Below, piece after piece: positions 1-35,937 of a DNA stretch of 49,641 nt. Numbering within the stretch: position 1 is the stretch's first letter; every line of letters begins with the position of its first letter. Under the pieces are notes generated by a model. The model saw nothing but the letters and a program-made list of their open reading frames with translations, was not told the origin of the DNA and ran no database searches. The position numbers and the translations under genes were made by a program. The stretch is from Lachnospiraceae bacterium (GTDB lineage Bacteria; Bacillota; Clostridia; Oscillospirales; Oscillospiraceae), in the NCBI GenBank assembly GCA_963654505.1, contig CAVKBJ010000001.1, positions 1 to 49,641 of the forward strand, read 5' to 3'.

Positions 1-288
1 ATAGCCGGCCGTCGTCGCCGCGCTCACCTTCACCGCCTTGACAACCGCCGCGCCGTTGCGATAGAGCGCCGCGAGCAGCGCCGCCATGCCGGCCACACCC
101 TCCGCGTCCTCGCCGAAGGCGCTCACGCCCTCGGCGTAGGAGGTCAGCGTCACCACCTCGTTCGCCGTGCCCGTCGTACTCACCGCCGCCGCGCCGATGA
201 TCTTCGCGGTCTTTTTCCCGCTGATCACGCTCGAGGCGTCGTAGGACGAATACACGCCCGGATGCTCATGTACCACCGTATTGCCCAT
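1..288 (-). CDS. Phage tail sheath protein, N-terminal part (runs off window)
   Basis: Not in the ORF track. ATG at 288 directly follows the upstream TAA and reads MGNTVVHEHPGVYSSYDASS...; the PGVY N-terminal motif is typical of contractile-tail sheaths; frame open to base 1. Confidence 0.75.
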   Translation of the reverse strand, partial: MGNTVVHEHPGVYSSYDASSVISGKKTAKIIGAAAVSTTGTANEVVTLTSYAEGVSAFGEDAEGVAGMAALLAALYRNGAAVVKAVKVSAATTAGY

Positions 289-789
289 TTACTGCATCAC
301 ACCTTTCAAAATAAAATCCGTCAGCACCGCGCTCTCCTCTTCCGCCGTCGCCACGAAGTAGGCCGTGCAGCGCGCGGTGCCCCGCCGCACGAACATTCCG
401 TATTTCTCGTCCCACTCCGTATTTTCCCAGCTCAGTTCGTCGAGCGTCAGCCCGTCGGCAAGTCTGCCCAGCAGCGCCTCGCTCACGGCCTCTGCCGTCT
501 GCTCGCAGCCGCGCGCTCCCTTGCGCCGCGGCGTGTAAACGTCCAGCGACGCCGCCATTTTGAGCCGCCTGCCATATACCTCGACCGTGCGCCCGCTCTC
601 CTCGTCGTACTGCTCGCCGAGATAGTCCAGCAGTCCCGTGTGCGTCAGCCCCGCCTGCTTCGCGCCGACGGCGACCACGCTCCCGCTCCTCTCGCGGAAG
701 CGCTCGTCCTCGTAGGCCTCCGCCGCGTCAAGACCCGCCGCCTTCAGCCGGCTCACGATCTCCGCTCTCACCTGTCCCGCCGCCGTCAT
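289..789 (-). CDS. Phage neck / tail-completion (tail terminator-like) protein
   Basis: 166 aa between the head-closure and sheath genes; ATGA overlap with the upstream gene; function inferred from position. Confidence 0.5.
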   Translation of the reverse strand: MTAAGQVRAEIVSRLKAAGLDAAEAYEDERFRERSGSVVAVGAKQAGLTHTGLLDYLGEQYDEESGRTVEVYGRRLKMAASLDVYTPRRKGARGCEQTAEAVSEALLGRLADGLTLDELSWENTEWDEKYGMFVRRGTARCTAYFVATAEEESAVLTDFILKGVMQ

Positions 790-1109
790 GCCGTTTCCTC
801 CTCACGGTCGAGCACCGCCCAGTAGTGCGTCACCAGCTCCCCGAGCCTTACGCCCTCCGCGCGGCGGACGCGATAGCGCTTTCCCCCGCAGAGGATGCGA
901 TCCCCCTGCGCCACGCTCGTCTCCGCGCTGCCGAGATAGCGCCAGCAGCGCTTGTCGCTCGCGCCCAGCGGCCCGACGGAGAACGGCTCGCCGCCGCTCA
1001 CCGCCGTAACGGGCTGCACAAAGCCGCAGGCCTCGGCCGTTTCCCCGTCATGCTCCACCGTCACGGTCATGCCGTAGCGGCGGAACGCCTGATCGATCAT
1101 GCTTTTCAT
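786..1109 (-). CDS. Putative head-closure / head-tail adaptor protein
   Basis: Start re-set to MKSMIDQAF (1109), overlapping the upstream stop (ATGA); 107 aa with a GDRI..GG.RY.V pattern like head-closure proteins. Confidence 0.5.
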   Translation of the reverse strand: MKSMIDQAFRRYGMTVTVEHDGETAEACGFVQPVTAVSGGEPFSVGPLGASDKRCWRYLGSAETSVAQGDRILCGGKRYRVRRAEGVRLGELVTHYWAVLDREEETA

Positions 1110-1474
1110 CCCTTCACCGCGCAAAAGAAGAAGCCGCCTCCCTCCGTATACGGCGCCATCAGCTGCCGTGCGCTGCGGCGCAGCGCCGCGGCGCGTTCGC
1201 TGTGCGCGCCGCCCTTGACGTCGATCGTCACGTCGCCCGCGCGGAGGGAGGAAAGCTCCTCCGTCCCGCCGAGCCTTGCCTCCGTCAGCGCCGCGGCCGC
1301 CAGCCACGCGCTCGCGCAGACGAACGCTCCCTCACAGTCCTCCGGCGTCACGCCTGTGCGCAGCTCTCGTTCGAGCGCCTGCGCGCTTGCCGCGCAGAGC
1401 CTTTTGAGCAGCGCCTCGTCCTCCGTGCCGCAGGCGCAGATGCTCTTCGCCGTTTCAAGGATCTCCTCGTCCAT
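1106..1474 (-). CDS. Putative head-tail connector (gp6/gp15-like)
   Basis: 122 aa directly after the capsid gene; helical N-terminus then SSLRAGDVTI; GGGAGG/GGAG RBS. Confidence 0.55.
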   Translation of the reverse strand: MDEEILETAKSICACGTEDEALLKRLCAASAQALERELRTGVTPEDCEGAFVCASAWLAAAALTEARLGGTEELSSLRAGDVTIDVKGGAHSERAAALRRSARQLMAPYTEGGGFFFCAVKG

Positions 1475-1505
1475 CGCTCTCCCTCCCTTCGCTCACGCGC
1501 CGCCG

Positions 1506-2540
1506 TTAAACGGTCAGCACTTTGGATGCCTCCTGATAGGGCTTGGCGAAGCCGGAAATGCTCGTGATCGCCGCGCGCTCGATCTGGCGGTCGATGAGCT
1601 TGTCGTACTCCACCATCACCTCGCTGCCGCAGATGTGCTCGAGGGCATAGTTCTTGTCCAAACCGATCAGCTTGCCCGCGGGAACGGCGGCGGTCCTCAG
1701 CAGCTTCGCGCCCAGCGGCGTCGAGAGCGTACCGGTGCCCTGAAAATTCAGCCCCGTCAGCGGGTTCTGGAACTCGCTGAGCTTGAGCATCTTGAGCATC
1801 ACGTCGTTGGAAACCAGCAGCGTGTTCATGCTGTAGGGGTCGAACTTGGACCAGAAGTCCAGCAGCGCGTTGTAGGTCAGCGTGCCCGCCGTACCGCTGA
1901 TCTTGTCGCTTCCGCTGCCGATCTCGTAGGCGTCGGCGGCGTTGTCGTTGCCGTCGCCGTTGATGAGCACCTGCACCGCGTCGTCAAGATGCATACGCGC
2001 GATGTACGAGCCGATCTGCCGCAGCGTCACGGAAAAGAGGTCCAGTCTCTGGAAGCGGATGGCCTCGTAGCTCGCCACGAGCATACGCCCGCGCTTGTGG
2101 AGCTTCACCAGATTTTCCTGCGTGCGGATGGTCGTTGTGGGGATGATCGCACCCTCCTCCACGCGCCTGAGCGCCTTGTCGTCGTCCGTCGGCACGGACG
2201 CGATGGTGCGGTAATCCAGACCGTCAAAATTGGTCGTGGTCGCGGTGATCTCGGGCAGGATATCGCTCTCCATGCCCTGACGCACCACGCGCGAAACGAA
2301 CTCTGGGAACAGCACCGCGCTGTCGCTCGTGTGGAAGAACTTCTCCACCATATCGCTGCCCGCGCCCTTGACGTGGATGTCGAAGCGCTTGAGCTGACGC
2401 TGGAAGGCGTCCATGCCCTCCAGTGCCGTGCCGCGGTAATTTTCGCTCGGGTCAAGGCTCTCCAGCACGCGGGAAAAGCTCTTGCCGCTTTGGGCGTACA
2501 TACCCTTTTCGAGCCTCAGATTTTCATAGCCGTAAGTCAT
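1506..2540 (-). CDS. Phage major capsid protein (HK97-like fold inferred)
   Basis: 344 aa; LFPEFV, VEEGAIIP, LHKRGRMLVASYEAI motifs; strong AGGAGG RBS; position in head operon. Confidence 0.85.
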   Translation of the reverse strand: MTYGYENLRLEKGMYAQSGKSFSRVLESLDPSENYRGTALEGMDAFQRQLKRFDIHVKGAGSDMVEKFFHTSDSAVLFPEFVSRVVRQGMESDILPEITATTTNFDGLDYRTIASVPTDDDKALRRVEEGAIIPTTTIRTQENLVKLHKRGRMLVASYEAIRFQRLDLFSVTLRQIGSYIARMHLDDAVQVLINGDGNDNAADAYEIGSGSDKISGTAGTLTYNALLDFWSKFDPYSMNTLLVSNDVMLKMLKLSEFQNPLTGLNFQGTGTLSTPLGAKLLRTAAVPAGKLIGLDKNYALEHICGSEVMVEYDKLIDRQIERAAITSISGFAKPYQEASKVLTV

Positions 2541-2553
2541 TTTTCTCCTCCTC

Positions 2554-2907
2554 TTAAAGCATGATGGTCACGGTCTTGCCGACCGCGTCGGCCTCGACCG
2601 CCAGATAGCTGCGCCCGCCGCTCGTCACGACGCTCACGCCGCCGTTTCCGTCCGCCGCCAGCGTGTTCCAGCCGACCGCCGGCGCGTTATCGCCGCTGTA
2701 CGTCACGGTCACAAGACCGCCGAGCTGCACGCTGCACGCCTTGCCGTCGCGGCCCATCGCGGCGACCACGCCGCAAAAGCCGTCGTTCGCGGCGCACTTG
2801 CTCACCGTGCCGTTGGCAGAGACCTTGACGACCTTGCCCTCCTCGGCCCCCGCGCCCGCCTCGAAGGTCGCGTGCCACGCGCCGATGCCCTCATAAGAAA
2901 CGCTCAT
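2554..2907 (-). CDS. Putative capsid decoration/cement protein
   Basis: Start re-set to MSVSYEGIG (2907) behind GGAGG; 117 aa Gly/Ala/Val-rich protein directly upstream of the capsid gene. Confidence 0.5.
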   Translation of the reverse strand: MSVSYEGIGAWHATFEAGAGAEEGKVVKVSANGTVSKCAANDGFCGVVAAMGRDGKACSVQLGGLVTVTYSGDNAPAVGWNTLAADGNGGVSVVTSGGRSYLAVEADAVGKTVTIML

Positions 2908-2971
2908 CTCATTTCCTCCTTTTCCTTTGTCCTGTATTCCAAAAAGCGTCCCGCTTTTTTGGTCACTTTGC

Positions 2972-3889
2972 TCATACGCAGAAGTCGCGCTCGTTCTCCT
3001 CGCGCTTTTCGCGCGGCTCCACGACCTGCACGCTCGTGCCGAGCTTCTTCGCCGCCCGCGCACCGAACGTCTTCTTCAGCTCCAGCAGCTCATGCTCGCC
3101 GAGCTTTTCCGTCACGCTTTCGGCCACCGCGCCGTCAAGCTCCTCGTCGGCCACCAGCATCAGCCTTCTCACCTCGCGACGCAGCGCGCCGAGATAGTTT
3201 TTCCCAAGCGCGGAGAGCTTTTCCAGCTCCTCCAGCTCGCGGGCCTGCGCGCGGCTGCCGCACGCGCGCACCATCGCCTTGAGCGAGCTCTCGCCCTGTC
3301 CGAAGCGCTTGACGACGCCCGCCTCCTTCTGCGCCGGCACCGCCACGAAGCTCCACTCGTAGGCGTCCGTGATGTCGCCCAGCGTCGCGTAGCACAGCCT
3401 TCCGCCGTAGTACCTCCCGCGCTCGTGCTCGCACACTCCCGCGTCCTTCCCGCAGATTGAGCAGGTGCGCTTCGCCGCGCTGCACCCGACGCTCACTTCC
3501 TTTTTGATGCCGCCCTCGATCTCCGCGATCAGCTCCGCGTTCTTCTCCGTGCGCAGCATATAGGCCCAGCCCTTGCACCAGCAGTACCGCTCGCCCGCCT
3601 GCGTGAGCGTCTCGCCCTCGACCACCTCAGTCCGATAGATGCGCGCCGTCTGCCCTCCCGCCGACCACGTGTGGTCGAAGATGCCCGTCCTCCCGACGAA
3701 CAGCTCCGCGAGCCTTTCCAGCGCCGTGCGGTCGAAGCGCTCGAAATCGCGGTCCACCTCGTTGTCGCACAGCTTCACCGCAAAGGTGTAGACCTCCTCC
3801 GCGCTCAGCTCCTTTTTCGCAAAGCGGTTGATCTGCGCCAGCTCCTCCGCCGTCACGGCGGCGCTCTGCTCCTTCCTTTCCTCGCTCAC
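2972..3889 (-). CDS. Prohead protease with C-terminal scaffold-like region
   Basis: IFDH, EVSVG and YEWSFVAVPA motifs of caudoviral prohead proteases; helical charged C-terminus; GTG overlaps the portal stop. Confidence 0.7.
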   Translation of the reverse strand: MSEERKEQSAAVTAEELAQINRFAKKELSAEEVYTFAVKLCDNEVDRDFERFDRTALERLAELFVGRTGIFDHTWSAGGQTARIYRTEVVEGETLTQAGERYCWCKGWAYMLRTEKNAELIAEIEGGIKKEVSVGCSAAKRTCSICGKDAGVCEHERGRYYGGRLCYATLGDITDAYEWSFVAVPAQKEAGVVKRFGQGESSLKAMVRACGSRAQARELEELEKLSALGKNYLGALRREVRRLMLVADEELDGAVAESVTEKLGEHELLELKKTFGARAAKKLGTSVQVVEPREKREENERDFCV

Positions 3890-5052
3890 TTCCGTTCCTC
3901 CATTTTGTCATTTTCCAGCCGCAGCTTCCGCGCCTGCTCGCGGTACAGCTCCGCCTTGTTTTCCTCCACAAGATCCTGCAAATTGATGTCGTCCCACTCC
4001 ACGTGGAAGCGGCAGCCATAGCCGTGCATCCGCAACCACAGCCGGCACACGCGGTCCATCATCGGCGTGAGCGAGCGCCGCAGCGCCGTGATCTCGCTCG
4101 TGAGCATATCCGCCTGCTGACTGCTCATGCGCTCGGTGGACGACCAGCTCAGCCCCAGCAGGAACGGCGGCAGGCCGGTCTTGGCCACCAGCTGCTCAAG
4201 CAGCTGGCGCATCGGCACCTCGGTATCGGGCATCACGTTGTCCGCCCCGATGGCACGGATGCTCACGTCGCCCACGCTCACAAAATCCCGCACGTCCCCG
4301 CCGCGCGCGTCCTGCATCGCGCCGGACCACTCCTGCGCCAGCAGCTCGGCCCGCTCGCGGGCCAGCGTGCTGTCCGGTTCCTCGCCCTGCGGCTTATAGA
4401 CCACCGCGAAGCGCACGTTGCCGCAGCGCTCCCAGTTCTGCCCCATAGCGTAGTGGATGCGCAGCAGCAGATCCACCATAAAGGGCATCGAGCGCAGCAG
4501 CGACACGCCGTAGGGCGCGTCCGGCTCCGGCAGCAGCGGCGTAAAGAGCATCAGCTCCTGCCTCGGCAGCTCGCGCAGCTTTCCCGCGCTGTCATAGCCG
4601 CAGAACCTCACGTCCAGCGGCGTCTCGCCCTCACGCAGCGCCACAGCCTCCACGCGGTGGCACATCACCGCCGCGATCTCGCGCCCCTCCGGGTCGGGCA
4701 CGATCTCCCCCACCGCGCGCCCGTAGGTCAGCATCGAATCCACGTACTTGTCCAAAAAGGCATCGAAGCCCACCTGCGCGTGCCCCACGTCCACCGTGCG
4801 CAGGAACTCGCCCAGCTCGTCCTGCGCGCGCTCGTCCTCACACAGCACGCGGAAGCCTCCGCTCAGCCGCACCAGCTTGTCGATCGCCGCGTCTATGATC
4901 GGCACCGCCTCGCGGACACTCTGATACAGCGCCGTGTCCGCCCCGCTCAGCGGCGTATAGCTGCGCAGCGCCGTAAAGGGATGCCCTCCCCTCTCGCGCA
5001 CCTGCACCGCCGCGGACGCGCCTCCCGTCTGCTGCTTTTTCCTTCGTATCAC
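3886..5052 (-). CDS. Phage portal protein
   Basis: Start re-set to GTG 5052 (AGGAG RBS); 388 aa with PYGVSLL and GLPPFLLG portal motifs; lies between TerL and the protease. Confidence 0.8.
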   Translation of the reverse strand: MIRRKKQQTGGASAAVQVRERGGHPFTALRSYTPLSGADTALYQSVREAVPIIDAAIDKLVRLSGGFRVLCEDERAQDELGEFLRTVDVGHAQVGFDAFLDKYVDSMLTYGRAVGEIVPDPEGREIAAVMCHRVEAVALREGETPLDVRFCGYDSAGKLRELPRQELMLFTPLLPEPDAPYGVSLLRSMPFMVDLLLRIHYAMGQNWERCGNVRFAVVYKPQGEEPDSTLARERAELLAQEWSGAMQDARGGDVRDFVSVGDVSIRAIGADNVMPDTEVPMRQLLEQLVAKTGLPPFLLGLSWSSTERMSSQQADMLTSEITALRRSLTPMMDRVCRLWLRMHGYGCRFHVEWDDINLQDLVEENKAELYREQARKLRLENDKMEERK

Positions 5053-5069
5053 CGTTTCGCCGCTCCTCT

Positions 5070-6326
5070 CTAATTCGTCATTCTTGTCACCGCGCGGATG
5101 GCCGGCGCCGCGCTCCGTCCCGCCGTCACGGACATCGCGAAGTACCGCATCTCGTCCATCGCGTGATCGTTCTCCTTGCGCGGCACGTCGTGCCCGCTCC
5201 CGTCGCTCGCCCAGCCGTAGGACTCCATCTCGCGCAGGCAGTCCGCGCAGCTCCCGCAAATCACGAGTCTTCGCTTCTTGAGCAGATCCGCCGTCACCCG
5301 CAGTCCGTCCGCCACGGCGTTGTTCGCCCGCGTCACGCGAAAGCCCCTGCGCCGCAGCGTCTCGATGAAGCTCGCCGCCGACGGGTCCACGATCACGCGC
5401 TCGATCCTTCTTCCCCTCGCCAGCTCCTCCAGCGCATCGACGTATTCCTCGTCCGTTTTCTGCCGTCCTGCCTTGCGGGAATCGTAATAATATTCGTCCA
5501 CACGGTACCACACGCCCTCCTTGAGCGCCCACAGCCCCATGCTCGTCGGGTTCACCGTCCCGTAGTCCACGGAGACGCGCAGGCGCTCCCACGGCTCCGG
5601 CGGCGCCTCCCCCACGTACTCCCCGTTGAAAAAGTCGTAGATGCGTCCCTCCGCCGCCGTCCACTCGCCCAGCACGAAGCGCCGGTAAAAGAGCCCGTCG
5701 TAGTTGTTCTCATACCGTGCGCGCACCCTCGCGCTCAACGACGGATTGTCCTCCATCCTGAAGTGGAGATAGAGCGCCCTTTTCTCCTCCGCCCCGCATA
5801 TCCACTCCCGGTAGAACCAGTGCCCCGGCCCCTCGGGATTGCAGCTGAACCACAGCCGGCTCCCCTCGACCGAGCAGCGCGCGGCCGCCTGCTCGATGAA
5901 AGAGCGCGGCATCAGCGCCGCCTCGTCGAACAGCGCCCCCGAGAGCGTCATGCCCTGAATGAGCGCGGCGCTCGACTCGTTTGCCCCGCCGAACAGATAA
6001 AACCGGTTCTCTCTTCCGCGCCGGCGCACGGTCAGCAGTCTCTCGCTCCGCTTTTCCTCGCAGACGAAGCCCAGCGCCCGCAGCCGCGGCAGCACGGTGT
6101 TCAAAAGATTGCGCCGCAGCGCGCCCACGCTCCGTCCGCACAGCGCGAACTGCTGACCGGAAAAGCAGACCGTCGCCCAGTAGAAGAACCCCAGCCCCAT
6201 CGCCAGCGTCTTGCCCGACCGGACGGCCCCGTCGCAGATGACCGCCTCGCGGTCCGCGTATTCTCTCCTCGCCCACCACAAAAAGGCTTTCCTCTGCATG
6301 AGCGAGAATGGCATCATCTCCCTCAC
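5070..6326 (-). CDS. Terminase large subunit (PBSX-family-like)
   Basis: Walker A DGAVRSGKT, Walker B LFDEAA, SCNP coupling motif, nuclease motifs VDYG and DHAMDEMRY. Confidence 0.92.
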   Translation of the reverse strand: MREMMPFSLMQRKAFLWWARREYADREAVICDGAVRSGKTLAMGLGFFYWATVCFSGQQFALCGRSVGALRRNLLNTVLPRLRALGFVCEEKRSERLLTVRRRGRENRFYLFGGANESSAALIQGMTLSGALFDEAALMPRSFIEQAAARCSVEGSRLWFSCNPEGPGHWFYREWICGAEEKRALYLHFRMEDNPSLSARVRARYENNYDGLFYRRFVLGEWTAAEGRIYDFFNGEYVGEAPPEPWERLRVSVDYGTVNPTSMGLWALKEGVWYRVDEYYYDSRKAGRQKTDEEYVDALEELARGRRIERVIVDPSAASFIETLRRRGFRVTRANNAVADGLRVTADLLKKRRLVICGSCADCLREMESYGWASDGSGHDVPRKENDHAMDEMRYFAMSVTAGRSAAPAIRAVTRMTN

Positions 6327-6616
6327 GTTTCCTCCTCCGCCTGCACCATCGCGCGGAAGAACTCCTCGGCCTCGCCGTCCTCTCCGCTGAGCATCTCCGC
6401 CAGCGCCTGCAATGCCTTCACGCGGTCGATGAACCGCACCTCCACGCTCCCGAGGTTGCTGCGCCGAAACTCCGACACCGCGCCGAGATCGAGCCGCCGG
6501 ATCTCCTCCATCGTCGGCTCCTGACAGTACGCCAGCTTTATCGCGTCGTTTGCGCGCCCCATCGCCATTTTGTACAGCCTCTGAATGACCCGCTCGCGGG
6601 TAGCCCTTGCCTGCAT
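6323..6616 (-). CDS. Short terminase small subunit-like protein
   Basis: 97 aa from ATG 6616 (start uncertain); ERVIQRLYKMAM...VEVRFIDRVKALQAL resembles the C-terminal half of TerS; GTGA overlap with TerL. Confidence 0.6.
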   Translation of the reverse strand: MQARATRERVIQRLYKMAMGRANDAIKLAYCQEPTMEEIRRLDLGAVSEFRRSNLGSVEVRFIDRVKALQALAEMLSGEDGEAEEFFRAMVQAEEET

Positions 6617-6898
6617 TCCTTCAATCGCACCCCTTCCCGCGTCCGTCCCCGTCCCTCCCGCATTTCCTTCTCCTCTGCGCGGGCTGCGCGTTTCCGGCCG
6701 CCGTTCGTTTTCACCCGTAGCCGCCCGCCCCCGTTTTGTTGCACGCCCCCGTGCGTTCCCCGCCCGATTTTTTTGAGATTTTTCCATTTTCCTTTCGTTT
6801 AACAAAATCTTTACAGTCAAAATACCCAGCATTTCCCGCCGCATTTTGTCACATTCGCAAAAATTTTTCCGTTTTATCATTCTAAAGCGTCAAAACGA

Positions 6899-6927
6899 TT
6901 GCTTTTTCCCCGCCCCTCCTGTATAAT
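6899..6927 (+). promoter_or_regulatory. SigA-type promoter of APC permease
   Basis: TTGCTT-17 bp-TATAAT. Confidence 0.7.
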
Positions 6928-7052
6928 TTTGGCTAACGTCCTGCCGTTCCCCGAATGTGCAGGGCGGTCGTTTATACGGCAGGGCCGATCCGCCCCGCCC
7001 ATTTTTATACGGAGGAGCGCCCGTGCTCCCCGCCGGTTAAGGAGTGACAGCA

Positions 7053-8474
7053 ATGGAAAACAAGCTCGAAAAGAAATACGGCCTTTTCACCGCGATCTGC
7101 ATGGTGGTCGGCATCGTCGTCGGCTCGGGCGTATTTTTTAAGGCGCAGGTCATCCTGCAAAAGACCGGCGGCGATATGCCGCTGGGCATTCTCGCGTGGC
7201 TCATCGGCGGTGCCATCATGATCGTCTGCATCCTCGCCTTCTCCGCTATGGCGCAGAAATACGAAAAGGTCAACGGCATCGTCGATTACGCTGAGGCCAT
7301 CGTCGGCAAAAAATACGGCTACTACATCGGCTGGTTCCTTTCCACCACCTACTACCCCACCCTCACCTCGGCCCTCGCGTGGCTCAGCGCCCGCTATACG
7401 CTGGTGTTCATCACCTCCGTCGATCCCGACTTCCCGCTCATCGTCCCCGCCGCCGAGGGTGGCTGTGTCATCGGACCGGAGTGCCTCGCGCTCATGCTCT
7501 TTTACATGGTCTGCGCCTACGCCGTCAACGCCCTCTCTCCCCGTCTCGCTGGCAAGCTCCAGGTCGCTACCACCGTCGTCAAGTTCGTTCCCCTCACCCT
7601 CATGGCGGTCGTCGGCATCATCTACGGCCTGATGAACGGGATGCTGACCAACAACTTCTCCAATCCCGCCGTCGGCTACGAGGTCGCGGGCAGCCCGCTC
7701 TTCGCCGCCGTCTGCGCCACCTCCTTCGCCTATGAGGGCTGGATCATCGCCACCTCCATCAACGCCGAGCTCAAGGACTCCAAGCGCAACCTCCCCCGCG
7801 CCCTGCTCATCGGCGGCCTCATCATCGTCGCCACCTACATCCTCTACTACGTCGGCGTCGCCGGCGGCGCCACCAATCAGGAGCTTTGCGATTCCGGCGC
7901 GACCGCCGCGTTCATCAACGTGTTCGGCAACGTCCTCGGCAATATTCTCAACCTCTTCATCGCCATCTCCTGCATGGGCACGATGAACGGCCTGATGCTC
8001 GGCTGCTGCCGCGGCCCCTACTCTCTCGCCGCCCGCGGCGAGGGTCCCCATCCCGAGCTGTTCGGTCAGGTGGACAAGGTCTCCAACCTCCCCAACAACT
8101 CCGCCATTCTCGGCCTGTTCTACTGCGCCGCGTGGGGGCTCTACTTCTACCTCTCCAACCTCGCCGGCACCTGGAGCCATGCCGTCGCCTTCGCCGGCAC
8201 CCCGTTCGAGAGCGTCATTTTCTTCTTCGACCCCACCGAGCTGCCCATCATCACCATCTACGCGCTCTACCTGCCCATCTTCATCAACTGGATGAAAAAG
8301 GCGACCGACGAGTCCATGCTGCGCCGCTACGTCATTCCCGCGCTCGCCATCTGCGGCTCGCTCTTCATGGTCGCCGCCTGCCTCATCGGCCACAGGATGG
8401 GCAACTTCTGGTATCTCCTCACCTTCGCGGTCATCATGCTCATCGGCAGGCACTTCGCCAAACACGACGCCTGA
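7053..8474 (+). CDS. APC family amino acid permease
   Basis: VGIVVGSGVF and FAYEGW motifs, many hydrophobic segments; AAGGAG RBS before ATG 7053. Confidence 0.88.
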   Translation: MENKLEKKYGLFTAICMVVGIVVGSGVFFKAQVILQKTGGDMPLGILAWLIGGAIMIVCILAFSAMAQKYEKVNGIVDYAEAIVGKKYGYYIGWFLSTTYYPTLTSALAWLSARYTLVFITSVDPDFPLIVPAAEGGCVIGPECLALMLFYMVCAYAVNALSPRLAGKLQVATTVVKFVPLTLMAVVGIIYGLMNGMLTNNFSNPAVGYEVAGSPLFAAVCATSFAYEGWIIATSINAELKDSKRNLPRALLIGGLIIVATYILYYVGVAGGATNQELCDSGATAAFINVFGNVLGNILNLFIAISCMGTMNGLMLGCCRGPYSLAARGEGPHPELFGQVDKVSNLPNNSAILGLFYCAAWGLYFYLSNLAGTWSHAVAFAGTPFESVIFFFDPTELPIITIYALYLPIFINWMKKATDESMLRRYVIPALAICGSLFMVAACLIGHRMGNFWYLLTFAVIMLIGRHFAKHDA

Positions 8475-12133: not shown

Positions 12134-12889
12134 TCAGGCGGTCTTTGCCCTGTTTTGCAGGCGGATGCGGTCGGCGATCATGGCGATGAACTCGCTGTTC
12201 GTCGGCTTGCCCTTCGTCGAATTGACCGTGTAGCCGAAGTAGCGCTGGAGCGTTTCGAGGTCGCCGCGGTCCCACGCCGTCTCGATGGCGTGGCGCACGG
12301 CGCGCTCCACGCGCGAGGGTGTGGTGTTATAGCGGCGCGCGACCTCGGGATAGAGCACCTTCGTCACCGCGTTGATGACCTCCATGTCCTGCACGGCGAG
12401 GATGATCGCCTCGCGGACGTACTGATAGCCCTTGATGTGCGCCGGCACGCCGACCTCGTGGATGATGGAGGTCACAAGGCGTTCCAGCGCGACGGGGCTT
12501 TCCTCCTCCGTTTCCTCCGTCTGCACGGCCTGCCGCATCCGTTCGAGCAGCGCGTCCGTCTCGCAGGGCTTCGCCATGAAGTACGCCGCGCCCTGCTCCA
12601 TCGCCCGGACCACCAGCCGCTCGCGGTAAAAGGCGGATACCAGAATCGTTTTCGGTCTTGCCGGCAGCTTCGCCATCCGCCCGAGCAGGCCCAGACCGTC
12701 AAGCTCCGGCAGGATCACGTCGGAAATGACAAGCTGTGGACGCTCCTTCTCGATCAGTCTCCAAGCCTCCGCGCCGTCACCGGCGCTCCCCACCACGTCA
12801 AATTCCCCCGTGTTTTCTATCGTCTGTTGCAGCATCGTGCGAAATTCCTCATTGGCATCCGCCAGAACGACCTTGATCCTGTTCTCCAT
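12134..12889 (-). CDS. spo0A: Sporulation master regulator Spo0A
   Basis: Receiver domain plus [26 protein letters not shown] and KPTNSEFIA motifs. Confidence 0.97.
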
Positions 12890-12972
12890 CCTTAAATATT
12901 TTCCTCCTAAATTACTCAGGCGCGACAGCGCATTCCGACGCTAAATCGGACGTTTCGTTTTGCCTTGCCTAT

Positions 12973-13048
12973 AAACTATCATATTCGGACAGTATTTTCA
13001 AGCAGATTTCTGTCGTTTAGCACAAATTTAATACGACACAATTCGATA
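12973..13048 (-). promoter_or_regulatory. spo0A promoter with degenerate 0A boxes
   Basis: TTGAAA-17-TAGTTT with TG extension (13001-12973); 0A-like heptamers at 13011-17, 13032-38 and 13042-48. Confidence 0.45.
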
Positions 13049-13107
13049 TTTTTAGCGTTTTCAGCTATGTATGGCGGCAAGGCGCTTTCCTTGCCGCCAT
13101 GCCCGCT

Positions 13108-14178
13108 TCAGGCCGACGCCGCGTCCCGCGCGGCCGGCTCCGAGGCCGAGAGCATATTTTCGATCAAAATGCCATAACCTCTCTGCGGATCGTCCACAAG
13201 GACGTGCGTCACCGCGCCGACCAGCTTTCCGTCCTGCACGATAGGGCTGCCGCTCATGCCCTGCACGATGCCGCCCGTGAGCGCAATGAGCCGCGAATCG
13301 GTCACGCGCAGCAGCAGATTGCGCGTGGGCGCGGAGCCGCCGTAGAGCTTTTCGATCTCGATCTCATACGCGCGCACGTCGTCGCCCTCGCAGTTTGCCA
13401 GAATGACCGCCCTGCCGGTGTGGACCTCCTCGCGCTCCGCGACGGGGATCGCCTCTCCGATATTCTCCGGCCGGTTCTCCTCCGGCAAAACGCCGAAAAT
13501 GCCGCACTCCGTATTCGCGTAAAGGGAGCCGAGGTCGCGCGTCAGGTCGAAGTCGCCGCGCAGCTCGCCGGGCGAGCCGCTCTCGCCGCGCTTGACCGCC
13601 TTGACGCTCGCCGCCATCACGCTGCCGCGCGAGAGCGGCATGAGCGCGCCGGTGTCCATGTCCGTGATGCCGTGGCCGAGCGCCGCGAACACGCCCGTGG
13701 CCGGATCGTAGAAGGTCACCGTGCCGATGCCCGCCATGCTGTCGCGGATCCACGCGCCGAGGCGGCACACGCCGTCCTGTCCCTTTTGCGGGCAGACGGC
13801 GAGCTTTACGAGCCTGCCGTTGCGGCGCACGCCGAAGGCCGCCTCCTTCTCTCCGTTTTCCGCGAGGAGCGATTGCAGATGCTCCGTCGATTCGATGGCG
13901 GCGCCGTTCATCGTCAGGAGCAGATCGCCGGCCTTCATGCCGCCTTTTTTCGCGGGCGACGCCGTATCGCCCTCCGAAAGTCCCACGACCAGCACGCCCT
14001 CGGCAAAGAGCTTCACGCCGATCGCCTTGCCGACCGGCACGAGCGTGCGCACCTCGCTCCCGTCCGCCGCCGCGCTCACCGCGCCCGCCGGCACGAGCAG
14101 GGCGGAGAGCGCAAAGACCAGTGCCGCGCAGACGGCCGCGCCATGCCGTCCGCCCGGCTTCCGCCGCTTTTCATCCAT
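13108..14178 (-). CDS. spoIVB: SpoIVB peptidase (S55)
   Basis: PDZ region, GIGTVTF, ALGHG, GIVQGMSGSPI, GAVTHV; start re-set to ATG 14178 (GAGGTG RBS). Confidence 0.93.
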   Translation of the reverse strand: MDEKRRKPGGRHGAAVCAALVFALSALLVPAGAVSAAADGSEVRTLVPVGKAIGVKLFAEGVLVVGLSEGDTASPAKKGGMKAGDLLLTMNGAAIESTEHLQSLLAENGEKEAAFGVRRNGRLVKLAVCPQKGQDGVCRLGAWIRDSMAGIGTVTFYDPATGVFAALGHGITDMDTGALMPLSRGSVMAASVKAVKRGESGSPGELRGDFDLTRDLGSLYANTECGIFGVLPEENRPENIGEAIPVAEREEVHTGRAVILANCEGDDVRAYEIEIEKLYGGSAPTRNLLLRVTDSRLIALTGGIVQGMSGSPIVQDGKLVGAVTHVLVDDPQRGYGILIENMLSASEPAARDAASA

Positions 14179-14334
14179 CCCATCACCTCTCCTGTTCAAA
14201 AAGAAAGCGTTCTTTTTGAAATTTTTTCTGCCGCGTTTTGCGGCTTCGTTACTTTTTGCGGAACCGCGAAATTTAGCCCGCACAAAATCTGTCGGCGCTG
14301 GCATGGAAATTCCTGCTTTCGCGCCGCGGCCGGG

Positions 14335-14365
14335 AAAAAAGAAAACCGCAGGTAAAAACCTGCGG
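14335..14365 (-). terminator. Intrinsic terminator after ftsZ
   Basis: CCGCAGGT/ACCTGCGG stem followed by a T tract on the minus strand. Confidence 0.7.
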
Positions 14366-14387
14366 CTTTCGGCAAAATTTGGAAAAA

Positions 14388-15509
14388 TCAGCGCTCACGA
14401 TTGAAAATTTTGAAAATGTCGGCAAAGGGATCGTCTTCCTCCTCGGCCTTCTTCTCCGCCTCGGCGGCGGCCTTGTCGGCCTCGAAGTTGATCGGCTCGA
14501 TGGAGGGCTTCGCCGCCTCGGCCTTCTTCTCCTCGGCGGGCGCGGTGTTCTTGCCGTCGGCAAAGCCTGTGGCGATGACCGTGACGCGGATCTCGTCGTC
14601 CATCGACTCGTCGAAGGTCGCGCCAAAGATGGTCAGCGCGTCGGGATGCACCGCGTCCTGCACCAGCGAGGCGGCCTGCTCGACCTCCTCAAGGCCGATA
14701 TCCATAGAGCCGGTGACGTTGATGAGCACGCCGCGCGCCCCGTGGATCGAGGTCTCAAGCAGCGGGCTGGAGATGGCCATGCGCGCGGCCTCCTCGGCCT
14801 TGCCCTTGCCCGCCGCGCGGCCGACGCCCATGTGCGCCATGCCCGCGTTCTTCATGATGGCGGTCACGTCCGCGAAGTCGAGGTTGATGAAGCCCGTGTC
14901 GCGAATGAGGTCGGAGATGGACTGCACCGCCTGACGCAGCACGTCGTCCGCGATCTCAAAGGCGTTGGCGAAGGTGATCTTCTGATCGGTCGCGTGCTTG
15001 AGGCGCTCGTTGGGGATAATAACGAGAGAGTCAACTCTGCCTTGCAGCTCCTCGATGCCCTTTTCGGCCTGCTGCATCCTGCGGCGGCCCTCAAAGCCAA
15101 AGGGCTTGGTGACGACGCCGACGGTTAAAATTCCCATTTCGCGGGCGATCTCGGCCACGATGGGCGCGCCGCCCGTGCCGGTGCCGCCGCCCATGCCGGC
15201 GGTGATGAACACCATGTCGGTGTCCTCCAGCGCCTTGGAGATCTGGGCGCGGCTCTCCTCCGCGCTCTTGCGGCCCACCTCGGGGTCGCTGCCCGCGCCC
15301 TGGCCGTGCGTCAGCTTCTCGCCGATCTGGATCTTGTAGGTGGCGCTGGAAACGTTGAGCGCCTGCTTATCGGTGTTGACCGCGACGAAGTCCACGCCGC
15401 GGGTCCCGGAGCGCACCATGCGGTTGACCACGTTGTTGCCGCCGCCGCCGACGCCGATGACCTTGATCCTTACGACGTTTTCAACGCCGGTATCCAATCC
15501 GAATGCCAT
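14388..15509 (-). CDS. ftsZ: Cell division protein FtsZ
   Basis: [17 protein letters not shown] and INLDFAD motifs; start re-set to ATG 15509 (AGGAGG RBS). Confidence 0.97.
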
Positions 15510-15594
15510 ATCGGTTCCTCCTGCTATCTCTTGTAGAATGCGGGCGGACCGTGTCAACGCCGCCACAACATCAAGTGTATTGGAAAGCAAGCCT

Positions 15595-15623
15595 ATTGTA
15601 TAACGCTTTTTTCCCGCGGTCAA
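15595..15623 (-). promoter_or_regulatory. SigA-type promoter of ftsZ
   Basis: TTGACC-17-TACAAT. Confidence 0.7.
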
Positions 15624-15652
15624 TAGCCGCGCGCGATTTCCCGAAAACTTTT

Positions 15653-16426
15653 TTACGCGCCCGCGGACGGGATGAAGTGCATCTCGCCCTTGGACTTGAG
15701 CAGCATATAGTTCAGCTCGCCCGTCTCGTTCGACTCCAGAGCGTTCACCGTGCCCTGCACGCTGCGGAAAATATAGTCCATGTCCGAATCCCACGGGAGG
15801 CGCACGGTGAAGCGCCCCAGATAGGTAAACGTGATCGACTCCGCGTCGGAAAGGTCGATGCTCCCGATGTCCGGAAGCATCCCGCAGCCGTCCGCCGTTT
15901 TCACCAGCGTGAGCAGCGTTTCCGTCGTCAGCGTTTTCTCCGTGCCGAGGGAGAGCTGCGCGCTCGGCGCGGGCGCGTCCGGCTCCACGCCGACGATGCC
16001 TGGGCAACCGTCCGGCAGCGCGCCGGTCTGCTCAAGGAGCTTGCCGTTCGCGCTGATGAGCCACACGCCCTCCCGCGTGACGACGCCCGCCGCCGCCGTA
16101 CACTCCCGCACCGTGATGACAATGGTGTCCGGCAGAGCGCGGTTGATCGCCGCCTCCTCCACATAGGGCAGCGTTTCAAAGATCGCCTGCGCGGCGCTGT
16201 ACTTGTTGAGCAGGAACAGGTTATCCTCCAGCTTGATACCCGAGGCCGCGACGATCTCCTCCTCGCTGTAGCGCGCGTTGCCGCTCACGCGGATGCTCTG
16301 CACCTTGAAGAAGACCGTCAGCGCCGCAACGGCCGCGCCGGTGATGAGCAGAACGCACAGGAGCTTGAGCAGGAAGGAAAATCTTCCCCGCCGGCGTCTG
16401 CGGTTCACGCTGTGATTTCGTGCCAT
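15653..16426 (-). CDS. ftsQ: Cell division protein FtsQ/DivIB
   Basis: Basic N-terminus, one TM segment, POTRA pattern (VSGNARYS...LPYVE...LPDTIVI); start re-set to 16426. Confidence 0.82.
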
Positions 16427-16448
16427 AGCTTTTGTATCCTCTGCTTTT

Positions 16449-17705
16449 CTATGTAGTCTCCCGGCGTATCCGCGCGCCGAGCGCGGCAAGGTCGCGCTCG
16501 ATGCCGTCGTAGCCGCGGTCGATATGCGCAAGCTCCGTCACGCGCGTCGTGCCCTCGGCGGCAAGGCCCGCGATCACAAGCGCCGCGCCGCCGCGCAGGT
16601 CTGTGCATTTGACCGCCGCGCCGTGCAGCGCCCGCACGCCGTTCACCACCGCCACGCGCCCCGCGACGCGGACCTCCGCGCCCATGCGGGAGAGCTCGTC
16701 GACCTGACGGTAGCGGTTTTCAAAAATATTTTCGACAAAGACCGTGCTGCCCTCGCTTCTGAGGAGCGCCGCCATCAGCACCGGCTGCGCGTCGGTCGGA
16801 AAGCCCGGATAGGGCGCGGTCCGCACGGGGCGCACGGAGCGCAGCCGCCCGTCCGACCGCAGGGAGATGCCGTCCGCGCCGCTTTTCACCTCGCAGCCGC
16901 TCTCGGCGAGCGCGAGCGTCACCGTGGATACCGCGCGGTGATCCGCGCCCGTCAAGCGCACCTCGCCGCCGACCGCGGCCGCGGCGCACAGGTAGGTCGC
17001 GCAGACGATGCGATCGCCGATCACGCGGTGCGTGCAGCCGTGCAGCGCCGCGCCGCCCTCGATCGTGATGACGGAGCCGCCCGCGCCGCTCACCCGTGCG
17101 CCCATGCTGCGCAGGAGCATCTGGAGATCGACGATCTCCGGCTCGCGGGCCGCGTTGCAGATGACGGTCGTGCCCTCCGCGCCGCAGGCGGCGAGGATGG
17201 CGTTCTCCGTCGCGCCGACGCTTGGAATGGCGAGCGTGACGTCTGCGCCGCGCAGCTTCTTCGCCCGGCAGTAAAGCTCTCCGCCGCGCTCGACGATCTC
17301 CGCGCCCAGCGCGCGCAGGGCCGAAAGATGCAGGTCGATGGGCCGCGGCCCAAGCTCGCAGCCGCCGGGGTAGGAGAGCACCGCTTCACCCTGCCGCGCG
17401 AGGATCGCGCCCAGAAAAATGACGGACGAGCGCATCTCGCGCATCAGCTCGTCGGGAACGTCGCAGCGCGCCATCGGCGCGGTGTCCACCTCCAGCGCCG
17501 CGCCGTCGCGCCGCACATGGCAGCCGAGGTGTCGCAGAATGGCGGCGGAAGCGTCCACGTCGCGCAGGCGTGGACAGTTTTCGATGCGGCAGACGTCCCG
17601 CGCGAGGATCGTCGCCGCCAGCACCGGCAGGACACTGTTCTTGCTGCCCTGTATCGTCAGTTCTCCGTAAAGCGGCGCGCCGCCCTCGATGCTCAGATAG
17701 CTCAT
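16449..17705 (-). CDS. murA: UDP-N-acetylglucosamine 1-carboxyvinyltransferase
   Basis: [26 protein letters not shown] and DLRGGA motifs; start re-set to 17705. Confidence 0.95.
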
Positions 17706-17848
17706 GTGCCGTTCCTCCCTTTCCCGATGGGTAAGCAAACTAAGCCATAGTATGCGCCCACGGTGCGCCGGGGTTCCGATGCGGGAGGAAAACAGCCTGT
17801 CCTTTTGCGGATGGACACAGAGCCTGCGGCGGACGCCGCAGGCTTTTT

Positions 17849-18970
17849 TTATTTCACAAGCGCCATGACCGTTTCATAAATGCGCCCGGTCGCGTCGCGC
17901 ACGCCGAGCTTGAGCGACGCTTCGTGCATCGCCGCAAGGCGGTCCTTGTCGCGCAGCAGCGCGGCGGTCTCCATGAACAGGCGCTTGCCGTCCAGCCCCG
18001 CCTCGGGAAGGACGAGCGCCGCGCCGTGCTCGCCGAGCACGGCGGCGTTCTTCTCCTGATGATGGTTCGTCACGTTCGGCGACGGTACGAGGATCGCCGG
18101 CACGCCGAGCGCGGTCAGCTCGCTGAGCGTGGACGCGCCCGCGCGGCAGATCACAAGGTCTGCGGCGCGCATGACGTCCGCCATATCGTAGATATACTCC
18201 CGCACGTCGAGCGAGGGGTGCTCGCGCAGATCCACGCCGTATTCGCTCACCCAGCCGTGCATCCTCTGCCAGCCGAGCGAGCCGACGGAGTGAATATGGT
18301 GGAACGGCTCCTTCGCCGCCTCAAGATAGAGAAACTCCGCCGTGAGGCGGTTCATGCTCCCCGCGCCGAGACTGCCCCAAAAGGACACGACAAGCGGCCG
18401 GTCGTCGTTGACGCCGAGCTTTTCCTTTGCCTGCTCCCTGGTGAGCATGAAGAAATCGCCGCGCACCGGTGTGCCGGTGACGACCACGCGGTCCTTGTGC
18501 CGGTAATGCCGCCGGCAGTCCTCAAAGCCGACCATGATGCGGTCGCAGTGCTCCTCCAGCAGCCGCGTGGTAAGACCCGGCACGGCGTTCGACTCATGCA
18601 CCGCCGTCGGGATGCCGCGCGCGTGGCCGTAGCGCACGACGGGATAGCTTGCGTAGCCGCCCGTGCCGACGATGAGGTCGGGTCGAAATTCGTCCAGAAT
18701 GGCGTCGGCCTCGCGCTTCGCGCACGCGAGATTGCGCACGGAAACAAGGTTGTGGCGCAGCTCCTTCGGTCGGAGGGAGCGGTGGAAGGACGAGATGTTG
18801 ACGGTTTTGAAGGGATAGTCCGTGTGCGCGATCAGGTCGCGCTCCAGCCCGCGCTCCGCGCCGACAAAGAGAATTTTGACGTCCGGCTGTCGCTCCCGCA
18901 GATAGCCCGCGAGCGCCAGCGCGGGATTGACGTGTCCCGCCGTTCCTCCGCAGGTGAAAATGACGTTCAT
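17849..18970 (-). CDS. murG: Lipid II GlcNAc transferase MurG
   Basis: GGTAGHVNP, GTGGY, GSLGA, RAGAST and HQEKNA motifs. Confidence 0.95.
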   Translation of the reverse strand: MNVIFTCGGTAGHVNPALALAGYLRERQPDVKILFVGAERGLERDLIAHTDYPFKTVNISSFHRSLRPKELRHNLVSVRNLACAKREADAILDEFRPDLIVGTGGYASYPVVRYGHARGIPTAVHESNAVPGLTTRLLEEHCDRIMVGFEDCRRHYRHKDRVVVTGTPVRGDFFMLTREQAKEKLGVNDDRPLVVSFWGSLGAGSMNRLTAEFLYLEAAKEPFHHIHSVGSLGWQRMHGWVSEYGVDLREHPSLDVREYIYDMADVMRAADLVICRAGASTLSELTALGVPAILVPSPNVTNHHQEKNAAVLGEHGAALVLPEAGLDGKRLFMETAALLRDKDRLAAMHEASLKLGVRDATGRIYETVMALVK

Positions 18971-18983
18971 GCGCGCTCCCTCC

Positions 18984-20171
18984 TCATGTCGGCGGCATCT
19001 GCCGCGAAACGCTCAGCACAACGCCCATCTCCGCGAGCTGAATGGCGAGCGCCGTGCCGCCGTAGCTGAAAAACGGCAGCGAAATGCCGGTATTCGGCAC
19101 AAGATTTGTCACGACCGCGATGTTCAGGAACACCTGTAAGGCGATCTGCGTGGTGACGCCCACGACGAGCAGGCTGCCGAAGCGGTCGCGCGCGTGGAGC
19201 GCGATCCAGTAGCCGCGGATGATGAGCAGCGCGAAGATCGCCATGATGAGCGTTGCGCCGATGAGGCCCAGCTCCTCGCAGACGATGGAGAAAATGCAGT
19301 CGTTGTGCTCCTCGGGCAGAAAGAGGAATTTCTGCCGGCTCTTGCCGAGGCCGAGGCCGAGCAGTCCCCCCGAGCCGATGGCGATCAGGCTCTGGCGCGT
19401 CTGATAGCCCACGCCGGTCTTGAATGCATCGTTGAGCGGGTCCAGCCAGATGGCGATGCGCGAGGAGTTGTAGGTGATCAGTCCGGAGAGAAAGGCGTAT
19501 GCCACCGCCGCGATACCGCCGATGCCAAGGCCCACCCAGTATGCCTGAATGCCGCCGACGAACATCATCGCCGCGCCGATGCCGACGATGAGCACGGTGC
19601 CGGAAAAGTGCGGCTCCTTCATCATCAGTCCCGCGATGAGCACAAGGATGAAACCGTAAGGCAGAATGCCGTAACGGATGGTTTTCATCTTATCCTTCTT
19701 TTTGGAAATGCTGTCGGCAAAATAGAGAATGACGCCGAGCTTGGCGATCTCCGAGGGCTGAAACTGGTAATCCGTGCCGGGAATGCCGAGCCAGCGCGTC
19801 GCGCCGTGGCTGGTAATGCCAAGTCCCGGAACGAGGACTGCAGCGAGCAGAACGAGGGAAACTATCATTGCAATATTTGCCGCACCGCGGAATCTCGCGT
19901 AGTTGAGTCGTCCGATGACGGCCATCGCGCCAAGGCCGAGCGCCGCAAAGATCGCCTGCCGCTTGAAGTAGTAGAGCGGGTTGCCCGTTTCATAGTAGGC
20001 GGAGGGAAAGCTCGCCGAGAGGAGCATGATGAGCCCCATGCCGACGAGCAGCAGCACCAGCAGGAGGAACGGCACGTCGATTGGGCCGCGGCCCGCCTCT
20101 TTCGCGGCGGCCTCCATGCGCCTCATGTGCTCGCGCTGTTCGCGCCGCAGCTCGCGTTCTTCCTTTGTCAT
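18984..20171 (-). CDS. ftsW: SEDS protein FtsW/SpoVE
   Basis: FQPSEIAK, LPEEHND and LPFFSYGG motifs. Confidence 0.9.
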   Translation of the reverse strand: MTKEERELRREQREHMRRMEAAAKEAGRGPIDVPFLLLVLLLVGMGLIMLLSASFPSAYYETGNPLYYFKRQAIFAALGLGAMAVIGRLNYARFRGAANIAMIVSLVLLAAVLVPGLGITSHGATRWLGIPGTDYQFQPSEIAKLGVILYFADSISKKKDKMKTIRYGILPYGFILVLIAGLMMKEPHFSGTVLIVGIGAAMMFVGGIQAYWVGLGIGGIAAVAYAFLSGLITYNSSRIAIWLDPLNDAFKTGVGYQTRQSLIAIGSGGLLGLGLGKSRQKFLFLPEEHNDCIFSIVCEELGLIGATLIMAIFALLIIRGYWIALHARDRFGSLLVVGVTTQIALQVFLNIAVVTNLVPNTGISLPFFSYGGTALAIQLAEMGVVLSVSRQMPPT

Positions 20172-20204
20172 GCCCTCACCTCCTCCGACCGGTCTTGATG
20201 CGTT

Positions 20205-21191: not shown

Positions 21192-21230
21192 AACGTGTCC
21201 TTCCGCCGCGTGGCGCGGCTCTTTTGTTTT

Positions 21231-22670: not shown

Positions 22671-22715
22671 AGGCGCGTCGTCCTTTCTTCGTTGGATCTT
22701 GCTCTCTTTTGCACG

Positions 22716-33117: not shown

Positions 33118-33416
33118 GGCGGCTCCTCCCGCGCTCAAAGGATCGTGATTGAGCCTATTGTAGCATACCCGTCAAGGATTATCCACCGTCTTTTTTCGCG
33201 CGGACGCGAAATACAGTGAGGGCGCAAGCCATGTCGCGCTATCGCCTAATCGACATTACGGAAACGCGCTTGGCATCAGTGAAGACGTTCGTACCGGCGG
33301 CGTTCCGCGCGAGAAGCAGTCCCCGCCGGACCGGACATTTCGGCAATCGCCGCATAAGAAAAGCCCGGATGGATTTTCTCTGATAACTCGGCATAGCCTT
33401 CCGGCATTGCTTTCGG

Positions 33417-33944: not shown

Positions 33945-34347
33945 GGGAGACTACTTCTGTACAGAGCTTAGAGAGAACAATAGCAGAGAATATGTATATA
34001 GGAAACTATTATTTGGCTATGTATAGAAAAGACAATCGGGTAGAAGTGTGCATTAAAAAGATGCGCTAAATGTGAGTGACGAAAAAGGTATACCAGCTGT
34101 ACTATATTTTCAAGGAAGATGCGTTTGGCGCTTGTGAGCTTGTGCGTGTATTTTCCCTTCAAAGTCCCCTGAAAAGGACCTTGAAAGTCCCTGCCGGATA
34201 GTGCTATGATTATCCTGTAAATAAAGGATGTTCTCTGATGCTATGGCATTGGGGAGCATCCTTTTTTGCGGCAAAAACGCGAAAGCCGAAGAGAGAATGA
34301 CTTTTTTCGGTATTATGCGATCAATTGTGCAGTAAGGAAGGGTAGAC

Positions 34348-35885: not shown

Positions 35886-35891
35886 AAATGA

Positions 35892-35934: not shown

Positions 35935-35937
35935 AGG

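Follow-up and report, generated by a model that had tools for sequence, protein, structure and literature searches.

The DNA analysed here (the window, 49,641 nucleotides) is the start of a contig, C1, of a bacterium deposited as Lachnospiraceae and placed by GTDB within the Oscillospiraceae (assembly GCA_963654505.1, contig CAVKBJ010000001.1; genome G000, about 94% complete), and its first 6,616 positions carry, on the minus strand, an operon for the terminase, head and neck of a tailed phage particle followed by the beginning of a contractile tail sheath gene. Comparison of this operon with its counterparts in other genomes and loci (given as G and L numbers; G001, G017, G022, G024 and others alongside G000) makes it nearly certain that it is an ancient, host-maintained and domesticated phage-particle cluster and not an inducible prophage. 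A sequence-only reading of the window had arrived at such a domesticated particle, and this is now borne out by the lack of mobility genes, the agreement between the trees of element and host, the single copy number and purifying selection. With regard to function, the gene content indicates that the operon probably works as a gene transfer agent (GTA), as a DNA-packaging core that lacks replication and excision genes and is inherited like host genes across families fits a GTA better than a tailocin.

Vertical descent was assessed for 50 taxa by comparing a tree of TerL, portal and capsid with a tree of RecA, excluding taxa without a full RecA match or with less than 60% of a gene. The two trees have 29 of 47 splits in common, while 1,000 label shuffles gave a mean of 0.2 and a maximum of 3. 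Fifteen of the 16 RecA splits with a support of at least 0.95 were recovered, and the patristic distances gave a Spearman coefficient of 0.76. Within the genus, the well-supported groups are the same in the capsid tree and the RecG tree, so that the element follows its host at both levels. In seven genome pairs, dN/dS was mostly 0.1-0.4 for the head and tail genes and 0.02-0.13 for the capsid gene, and the dS of the operon matches that of the flanking host genes, indicating purifying selection at a host-like pace. Exceptions were the fastest-evolving gene of the operon, a putative miniature tape measure (0.6-0.8), and single values for the decoration gene (1.08), neck gene 1 (about 0.6) and XhlA (0.62).

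Among congeners, 12 of 24 carry the capsid gene (82-95% identity), and among 300 family genomes with a completeness of 90% or more, 130 do, each with a single copy; the sole double match among the 130 consisted of two adjacent halves of one gene. Were acquisition random, about 33 genomes would be expected to have two or more copies at this prevalence, and none was observed. In a sample of 400 genomes from the order, the gene occurred in six families (18/36, 20/36, 12/36, 2/9, 1/15 and 1/1) but was found in none of the remaining 20, and a class-wide sample contained it in 7 of 299 genomes. The cluster is present in at least 573 GTDB species; the family, order, class and GTDB genome sets may overlap. 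Gene order, flanks and integrity were counted in the best 80 of these GTDB matches, the named ones of which belong nearly all to Oscillospiraceae or to Oscillibacter, Dysosmobacter, Flavonifractor, Hominicoprocola and other genera, and relatives of a variant without the sheath are named Ruminococcus. The gene order was constant across the 80 loci, and 50 of the 51 complete loci, which span 12.1-13.6 kb, have all ten core genes whole. A patchy distribution had been named beforehand as an argument against domestication. The distribution is patchy, as the counts show, yet the argument does not follow from it: the 11 non-carriers that could be placed fall into three lineages (a clade of eight, a pair that is sister to the group of G000 and one basal genome), which we read as about three losses.

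Neither end of the element has the features of a mobile one. The sequence-only reading had seen no integrase, att site, repressor or replication gene at the terS end, where the operon stands back-to-back with a host permease, and had noted that its left end lies outside the window. The first observation holds for both ends, as no integrase, repressor or replication gene was found at either of them in G000, G017, G022 and G024, the longest word common to both flanks measured 8-11 nt in four genomes (mean of random pairs, 10), and a repeat search returned chance GC-rich matches only. The divergent neighbour of terS is an amino-acid permease (PF13520) at a distance of 436 bp. The left end is indeed outside the window, but it is not lost. 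Contig C144 overlaps C1 by an exact 55 bp, giving a sheath frame of 346 codons across the join, and continues with tube, mini tape measure, LysM initiator, hub, a spike-position gene, a gp25-like gene, baseplate J and YmfQ; on contig C53, YmfQ ends and is followed by one holin-like gene, by host mscS and by a CoA-transferase operon that looks like gctAB. This continuation is likewise free of an integrase. From terS to mscS the whole element measures about 12.67 kb, and the same chromosomal slot is used in congeners. The overlap between C144 and C53 (58 bp) contains 5 mismatches, suggesting a strain mixture in the assembly. In composition the operon resembles its host, as had been claimed, with a GC content of 0.658 (window 1-6616) against 0.478 at 33-36 kb and a GC content at third codon positions of 0.84-0.90 against 0.82-0.90 in five host genes. 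The low-GC island itself (window 33000-36000) carries a tyrosine recombinase gene at 34662-35885 and is unrelated to the operon.

A cryptic or helper-dependent mobile element, i.e., a defective prophage or a capsid-forming satellite that still moves or packages itself, is largely refuted by these data and retains a very low probability. In its favour, the flanking genes vary between genera, integrases adjoin the cluster in two loci (L073 and L129), and G058, a genome from outside the order, has a complete prophage with this module. The congruent trees, the single copy, the host-like dS and the missing att site all speak against it. When 54 mobility and replication queries were searched against the flanks of the 80 loci, the flanks of four loci gave matches (the one integrase of L129, two SSB genes and one weak helix-turn-helix match). 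The integrase of L073 lies downstream together with a CI-like gene at a position where the related L075 has tRNA genes, so that it is probably part of a separate insertion, and L073 was rejected as an autonomous phage on the same comparison. Among 50,697 phage records, close capsid matches were limited to five unannotated faecal scaffolds, and isolated phages reached at most 29% identity. Two of the five, GenBank 'Bacteriophage sp.' scaffolds from faeces (L093, MT835508.1; L094, MT835769.1), are chromosomal pieces that carry the cluster next to a ribosomal protein operon or thyA-folA-recG, the 'phage' match of 46.7 kb being the piece with the ribosomal protein operon. In IMG/VR, 41 of the 46 matched contigs are shorter than 17 kb. 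For the locus, sequencing archives listed no RNA run and six DNA runs with shares of 0.07-0.08; in four runs, contigs of relatives about 90% alike had a similar depth over operon and flank, a result too weak to count as evidence. Capsid-forming satellites (cf-PICI) carry an integrase, primase or replication genes and head genes only; here, no integrase or primase is found at either end and tail genes are present. Also the integrase, att site, repressor and replication module of an inducible temperate prophage are missing.

The prophage of G058 (about 50 kb, at approximately 454-504 kb of its contig C1) deserves separate mention, as close relatives among complete phages had been expected to contradict domestication. 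Isolated phages are too distant to do so, and the prophage, with a capsid 47-50% identical to that of the cluster, is a relative which at this distance shows the type of ancestor and leaves domestication intact. Its genes for capsid, decoration, protease, portal, neck, sheath, tube, initiator, hub and baseplate are homologous to those of the operon and follow one another in the same way. The prophage differs from the operon by an integrase, a repressor, a replication initiator, SSB, an 822 aa tape measure, a 641 aa gene at the fibre position, an amidase, and a different TerL and TerS.

The packaging and head genes are intact. The window had been described as holding an intact set from terS to sheath without frameshifts and with ATGA/GTGA overlaps at four junctions, and this was confirmed: the ten genes (terS, terL, portal, protease, decoration, capsid, three neck genes and the sheath start; window 1-6616) are open without internal stops, and all four 4-bp overlaps are real, with GTGA at terS/terL and portal/protease and ATGA at neck 1/neck 2 and neck 2/neck 3. 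TerL has a Walker A motif at residue 33, a Walker B motif at residue 132 and nuclease motifs at residues 253 and 386. The protease matched no named family, and its profile gave no match to PDB sequences. Its structural model had T4 gp21 as the best match among 48,161 chains (VIA-align Z 8.9, rmsd 3.3, 129 residues, model range 9-184), the corresponding Foldseek match being weak (prob 0.63). For the capsid, a search of the ESM Atlas returned nothing beyond its own family.

TerS occurs in a long and a short form. Its N-terminal segment is present in 27 of 67 loci and absent from 40, G000 included; the longer relatives match PF03592 from position 1-6. If the long form is ancestral, either tree requires six losses of the segment. 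In the accessible part of the literature, the absence of this domain is put forward as the basis of random packaging in RcGTA and as a trait of GTA terminases (PMC6854486). An in-frame extension of terS by 185 aa on its upstream side (ATG at 6880) was considered and rejected, as it overlaps the upstream motif described below and orthologues start at the position of 6616.

The tail is predicted to be small. Between tube and initiator, a gene with a median length of 172 aa was found in 66 loci (a few starts being miscalled), and its C-terminal motif ERDARRYDGGF resembles the RRY-containing end of the G058 tape measure. The gene is therefore read as a miniature tape measure, apparently cut from 822 aa, as in G058, to about 170 aa. 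No fibre gene was found after the baseplate, and of the 54 loci with enough flank only 14 continue with lysis genes. G001 has a tail chaperone pair (L033:8260-8909) with an overlap at an A-run resembling a -1 frameshift site. Of 25 loci that belong to other families, every one has portal, protease and capsid, 23 have terS and terL, 14 have baseplate J and 5 have the sheath, at least two of these loci being cut by contig ends. Thus, the packaging head is the conserved part, and the sister families have mostly shed the sheath. In three loci of family f9 (L340, L341 and L342; G693, G501 and G715), the capsid and protease genes are in swapped order.

These patterns bear on two further explanations. 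The operon might encode a killer similar to PBSX, which packages host DNA and kills related strains by its contractile tail while transfer is absent or incidental. Its TerL is of the PBSX family, and sheath, tube and baseplate are under purifying selection in Oscillospiraceae; PBSX, which packages host DNA, is described as non-injecting and tailocin-like in the available text of one study (PMC12946183), and clostridial tailocin prophages that retain head genes are reported in that of another (PMC10538166). Such a killer is nevertheless quite unlikely, given the missing fibre gene and the short tape measure (median 172 aa), and the sheath is gone in 20 of the 25 sister-family loci while the head stays, which is the reverse of what a killer needs. 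Alternatively, the particle may have another domesticated function, as a phage decoy, a protected form for DNA storage or release, or a protein compartment. This would agree with a head that persists where lysis genes, chaperones and sheath are often lost, with a capsid dN/dS among the lowest of the operon, and with encapsulins among the fold neighbours, as for any HK97 fold. We regard it as unlikely, since terminase and portal motifs are intact almost everywhere, which a DNA-free compartment would not need, and baseplate J is retained in 14 of the 25 loci from other families.

That a function is under selection, rather than one particular phage, is hinted at by a single event within the genus. 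In the clade of eight congeners lacking the cluster, the slot between thyA/recG and mscS-gctA holds a podovirus-like cluster, whose capsid is found in seven of the eight, with a remnant in G018; no integrase was seen in it. It looks like the replacement of one domesticated particle by another.

Upstream of terS, a palindromic motif was conserved: 51 of 63 upstream regions exceeded the 99th percentile of shuffled sequences, and the copy in the window scores 22.7 bits in a leave-one-out analysis and is the highest-scoring site of the whole G000 genome. In five loci of family f9 the motif has scores of 14-25 bits, and the G058 prophage lacks it. A second element follows it, at an offset of 21 or 22 in 33 of 58 aligned regions. 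Scanning G000, and 10 other genomes for the exact pattern, gave matches only at terS or next to genes unrelated to it, and the motif thus led to no locus for fibres or lysis. Known sigma-54 spacing and the LexA box were used for comparison, and neither identity was retained, as spacing and box do not fit. A scan of window positions 6300-7200 for sigma-70 promoters found none.

With regard to release, G000 differs from G017 and G022 by a deletion (C53 370-630) that removed XhlA, one holin-like gene and the M15 endolysin, and PF13539 (endolysin) was not found elsewhere in the 94%-complete genome. The family might thus be functional while the copy of G000 is a relic at an early stage, having ceased to release particles, a view which the absence of the capsid gene from the sister lineage G005/G020 would also support. 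It is highly unlikely, however, as the structural genes of G000 are all open, the dN/dS of G000 pairs resembles that of G017 versus G022, the upstream motif is intact and 40 of 54 relatives are likewise without adjacent lysis genes.

Taken as a GTA, the operon may be explained as follows. The starting point would be a temperate myovirus, whose single domestication took place at an early stage in the lineage leading to Oscillospiraceae and at least two sister families and left one morphogenesis operon of about 12.7 kb. In part of the population, the operon would be turned on through the conserved motif ahead of it, on which a host regulator would act. TerS without its DNA-recognition end and an intact TerL of presumed headful type would then fill a portal-bearing HK97-fold head with mostly random pieces of the chromosome. 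The head would join a miniature contractile tail of approximately 25-35 nm, as expected from a tape measure of 170-230 aa at about 0.15 nm of tail per residue. The DNA would be delivered to related cells, with release and receptor binding mostly provided by genes outside the operon. ComEC is present in G000 and also in 10 of 14 control genomes and thus says little about DNA uptake.

Several points weigh against a GTA. The locus is known from its genes alone, with no particle, RNA or packaged DNA linked to it, and purifying selection on resident phage genes does not identify their function. More than half of the family lacks the gene, 27 of 67 loci still have the long TerS, and one conflict between the trees (L163) has strong support. 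The baseplate is not followed by a fibre gene, adjacent lysis genes occur in just 14 of 54 loci, G000 itself has lost XhlA, one holin-like gene and the endolysin, and the tail chaperone pair is absent from G000, G017 and G022. In addition, a preprint, in the part available, found no strong GTA cluster in a transducing metagenome-assembled genome of Oscillospiraceae (Pelethomonas; 10.64898/2026.07.08.737213). A more comprehensive view falls somewhat short of an even chance, namely that the cluster is an ancient order-wide GTA of gut Clostridia, derived from an independently domesticated myovirus with a miniature contractile tail, in which TerS repeatedly lost DNA specificity, the sheath was shed in sister families, a podovirus-like cluster took over the same slot in one clade, and which would be the missing source of short host-DNA fragments in gut virus-like particles of Oscillospiraceae and Ruminococcus.

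The features of the operon and of the related loci are compiled in Table 1. Two other phage fragments occur in G000, an HK97-type head module on contig C98 (L038), whose protease is 47% identical to that of the window, and, on contig C121 (L039), a tail module whose tape measure has 678 aa; both are separate elements. Just beyond thyA, window 12134-24947 contains genes resembling spo0A, spoIVB and an ftsZ/mur division cluster, the names being taken from the look of the translations.

Table 1. Features of the particle operon and related loci (window coordinates unless a locus is given).
Feature	Position	Strand	Evidence and remarks
Small terminase TerS, 97 aa	6323..6616	-	PF03592 positions 61-129 of 141 only, phrog_51; N-terminal helix-turn-helix-type segment absent
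Large terminase TerL, PBSX/SPP1 family	5070..6326	-	TIGR01547, 163.8 bits (cut-off 105); ATPase and nuclease motifs intact
Portal protein	3886..5052	-	phrog_30703, E 1.7e-155; PF04860 weak
Prohead protease with C-terminal helical domain, probably scaffolding	2972..3889	-	Model match to T4 gp21; phrog_16951 of unknown function
Head decoration-type protein	2554..2907	-	phrog_4588, virion structural protein; decoration label from size and position
Major capsid protein, HK97 fold	1506..2540	-	phrog_3922, PF25209; model pLDDT 83, top Foldseek match HK97 Head II
Neck gene 1 (head-tail adaptor by position alone)	1106..1474	-	No family match; present in 67/80 loci
Neck gene 2 (putative head closure)	786..1109	-	PF05354, E 0.002, below cut-off
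Neck gene 3 (putative tail completion/terminator)	289..789	-	phrog_25177; PF11367, E 0.006, below cut-off
Contractile tail sheath, first 96 of 346 codons	1..288	-	phrog_279; PF04984 and PF17482 on the G017 orthologue; rest on C144
Palindromic motif TGCAC-N6-GTGCAAC, putative promoter/regulator site	6738..6755	-	Found de novo upstream of terS
Second conserved element GGGTGA	6711..6716	-	21-22 nt downstream of the motif
Mini tape measure, 228 aa	L036:3642-4328 (G000 C144)		Low-complexity, internal duplication; conserved C-terminal ERDARRYDGGF
Eroded lysis cassette	L037:336-634 (G000 C53)		41 bp XhlA remnant and one holin-like gene left
Replacement cluster	L221, L222, L223, L224, L220, L352 (G012, G007, G018)		TerL phrog_979, portal phrog_156, capsid phrog_371, fibre, holins, endolysin, divergent CI-like gene

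A literature search, within a body of literature covering few subscription papers, found no description of this operon. GTA-like packaging of 4-9 kb host fragments is reported in Oscillospiraceae and Ruminococcaceae, including Onthomonas and Ruminococcus callidus, with main peaks at 5.9 kb (Onthomonas), 4.6 kb (Ruminococcus callidus) and 4.4 kb (CAG-115), and the accessible text identifies an operon solely for Faecalibacterium (PMC12946183). Oscillospiraceae DNA is also described as enriched in mouse gut particles, together with candidates of 12.7 and 14 kb in two other families (10.64898/2026.07.08.737213, available part). The operon, carried by about four in ten species of the family, is thus a concrete candidate source of the Oscillospiraceae and Ruminococcaceae DNA over-represented in gut virus-like particles, and with it gene exchange among abundant gut commensals can be tested directly in cultured strains. 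Phage domestication, too, can be studied on it as a natural series, comprising a complete prophage, a shortened tail, a sheath-less head, repeated TerS truncation and replacement in the same slot. Virus databases list such chromosomal operons as viruses, which affects gut virome counts.

Compared with known systems, the operon appears to be a GTA or PBSX-like viriform type with a miniature contractile tail. Three of the six features by which GTAs are described in the available text of 10.1101/2022.06.10.494566 are seen on genomic evidence: proteins of a caudoviricete-derived tailed particle, as judged from the similarity of the TerL, portal, protease, capsid, sheath and baseplate genes alone; endogenisation, in its genomic part, with no integrase, att site or replication gene and the same slot in congeners; and vertical inheritance with host co-diversification, according to the RecA and RecG trees. 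FpGTA of Faecalibacterium, from the same order and habitat, is likewise an integrase-free operon of about 10 kb that opens with terS-terL-portal, with a TerS lacking an obvious DNA-binding domain and with fibre and lysis genes at a separate locus; by its description it is set apart as podovirus-like with an N4-gp56 capsid and a tail nozzle (PMC12946183, accessible part). In the operon no NCBIfam match to the N4-gp56 capsid was found, the capsid belonging to PF25209 and sheath, tube and baseplate being present, so that the two differ. PBSX carries a repressor and early region, a long tape measure, fibres and lysis genes on about 28 kb, whereas the operon, at 12.7 kb, has no repressor or early region, long tape measure or fibres and usually no lysis genes. 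Shared with PBSX of Bacillus subtilis are the Gram-positive host, residence in the genome, a PBSX-family TerL and a contractile tail module. RcGTA, with a size of 13-15 kb, has a different phage ancestor, and its capsid is 15% identical in a fold alignment. As described in the parts available, RcGTA and the other ICTV-recognised GTAs resemble the operon in having a single head-tail operon, vertical inheritance, host co-diversification and a truncated TerS (10.1101/2022.06.10.494566; PMC6854486), while BaGTA and BhGTA are described with non-contractile tails, in contrast to the contractile tail genes found here (10.1101/2022.06.10.494566). R-type tailocins keep tail, fibres and lysis genes and have lost the head, whereas here the head is conserved and there is no fibre gene; the tailocin prophages of solventogenic clostridia are described as 40 kb in size and integrase-bearing (PMC10538166, available part). 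Similar in size are two GTA candidates, one of 12.7 kb from Butyricicoccaceae QXXE01 and one of 14 kb from Anaerotignaceae Coprocola, which are also clostridial and integrase-free and whose host DNA is enriched in virus-like particles; the former, compared by its description, has a transcriptional activator, capsid proteins, a holin and an endolysin, and the available part of the text mentions no tail genes (10.64898/2026.07.08.737213).

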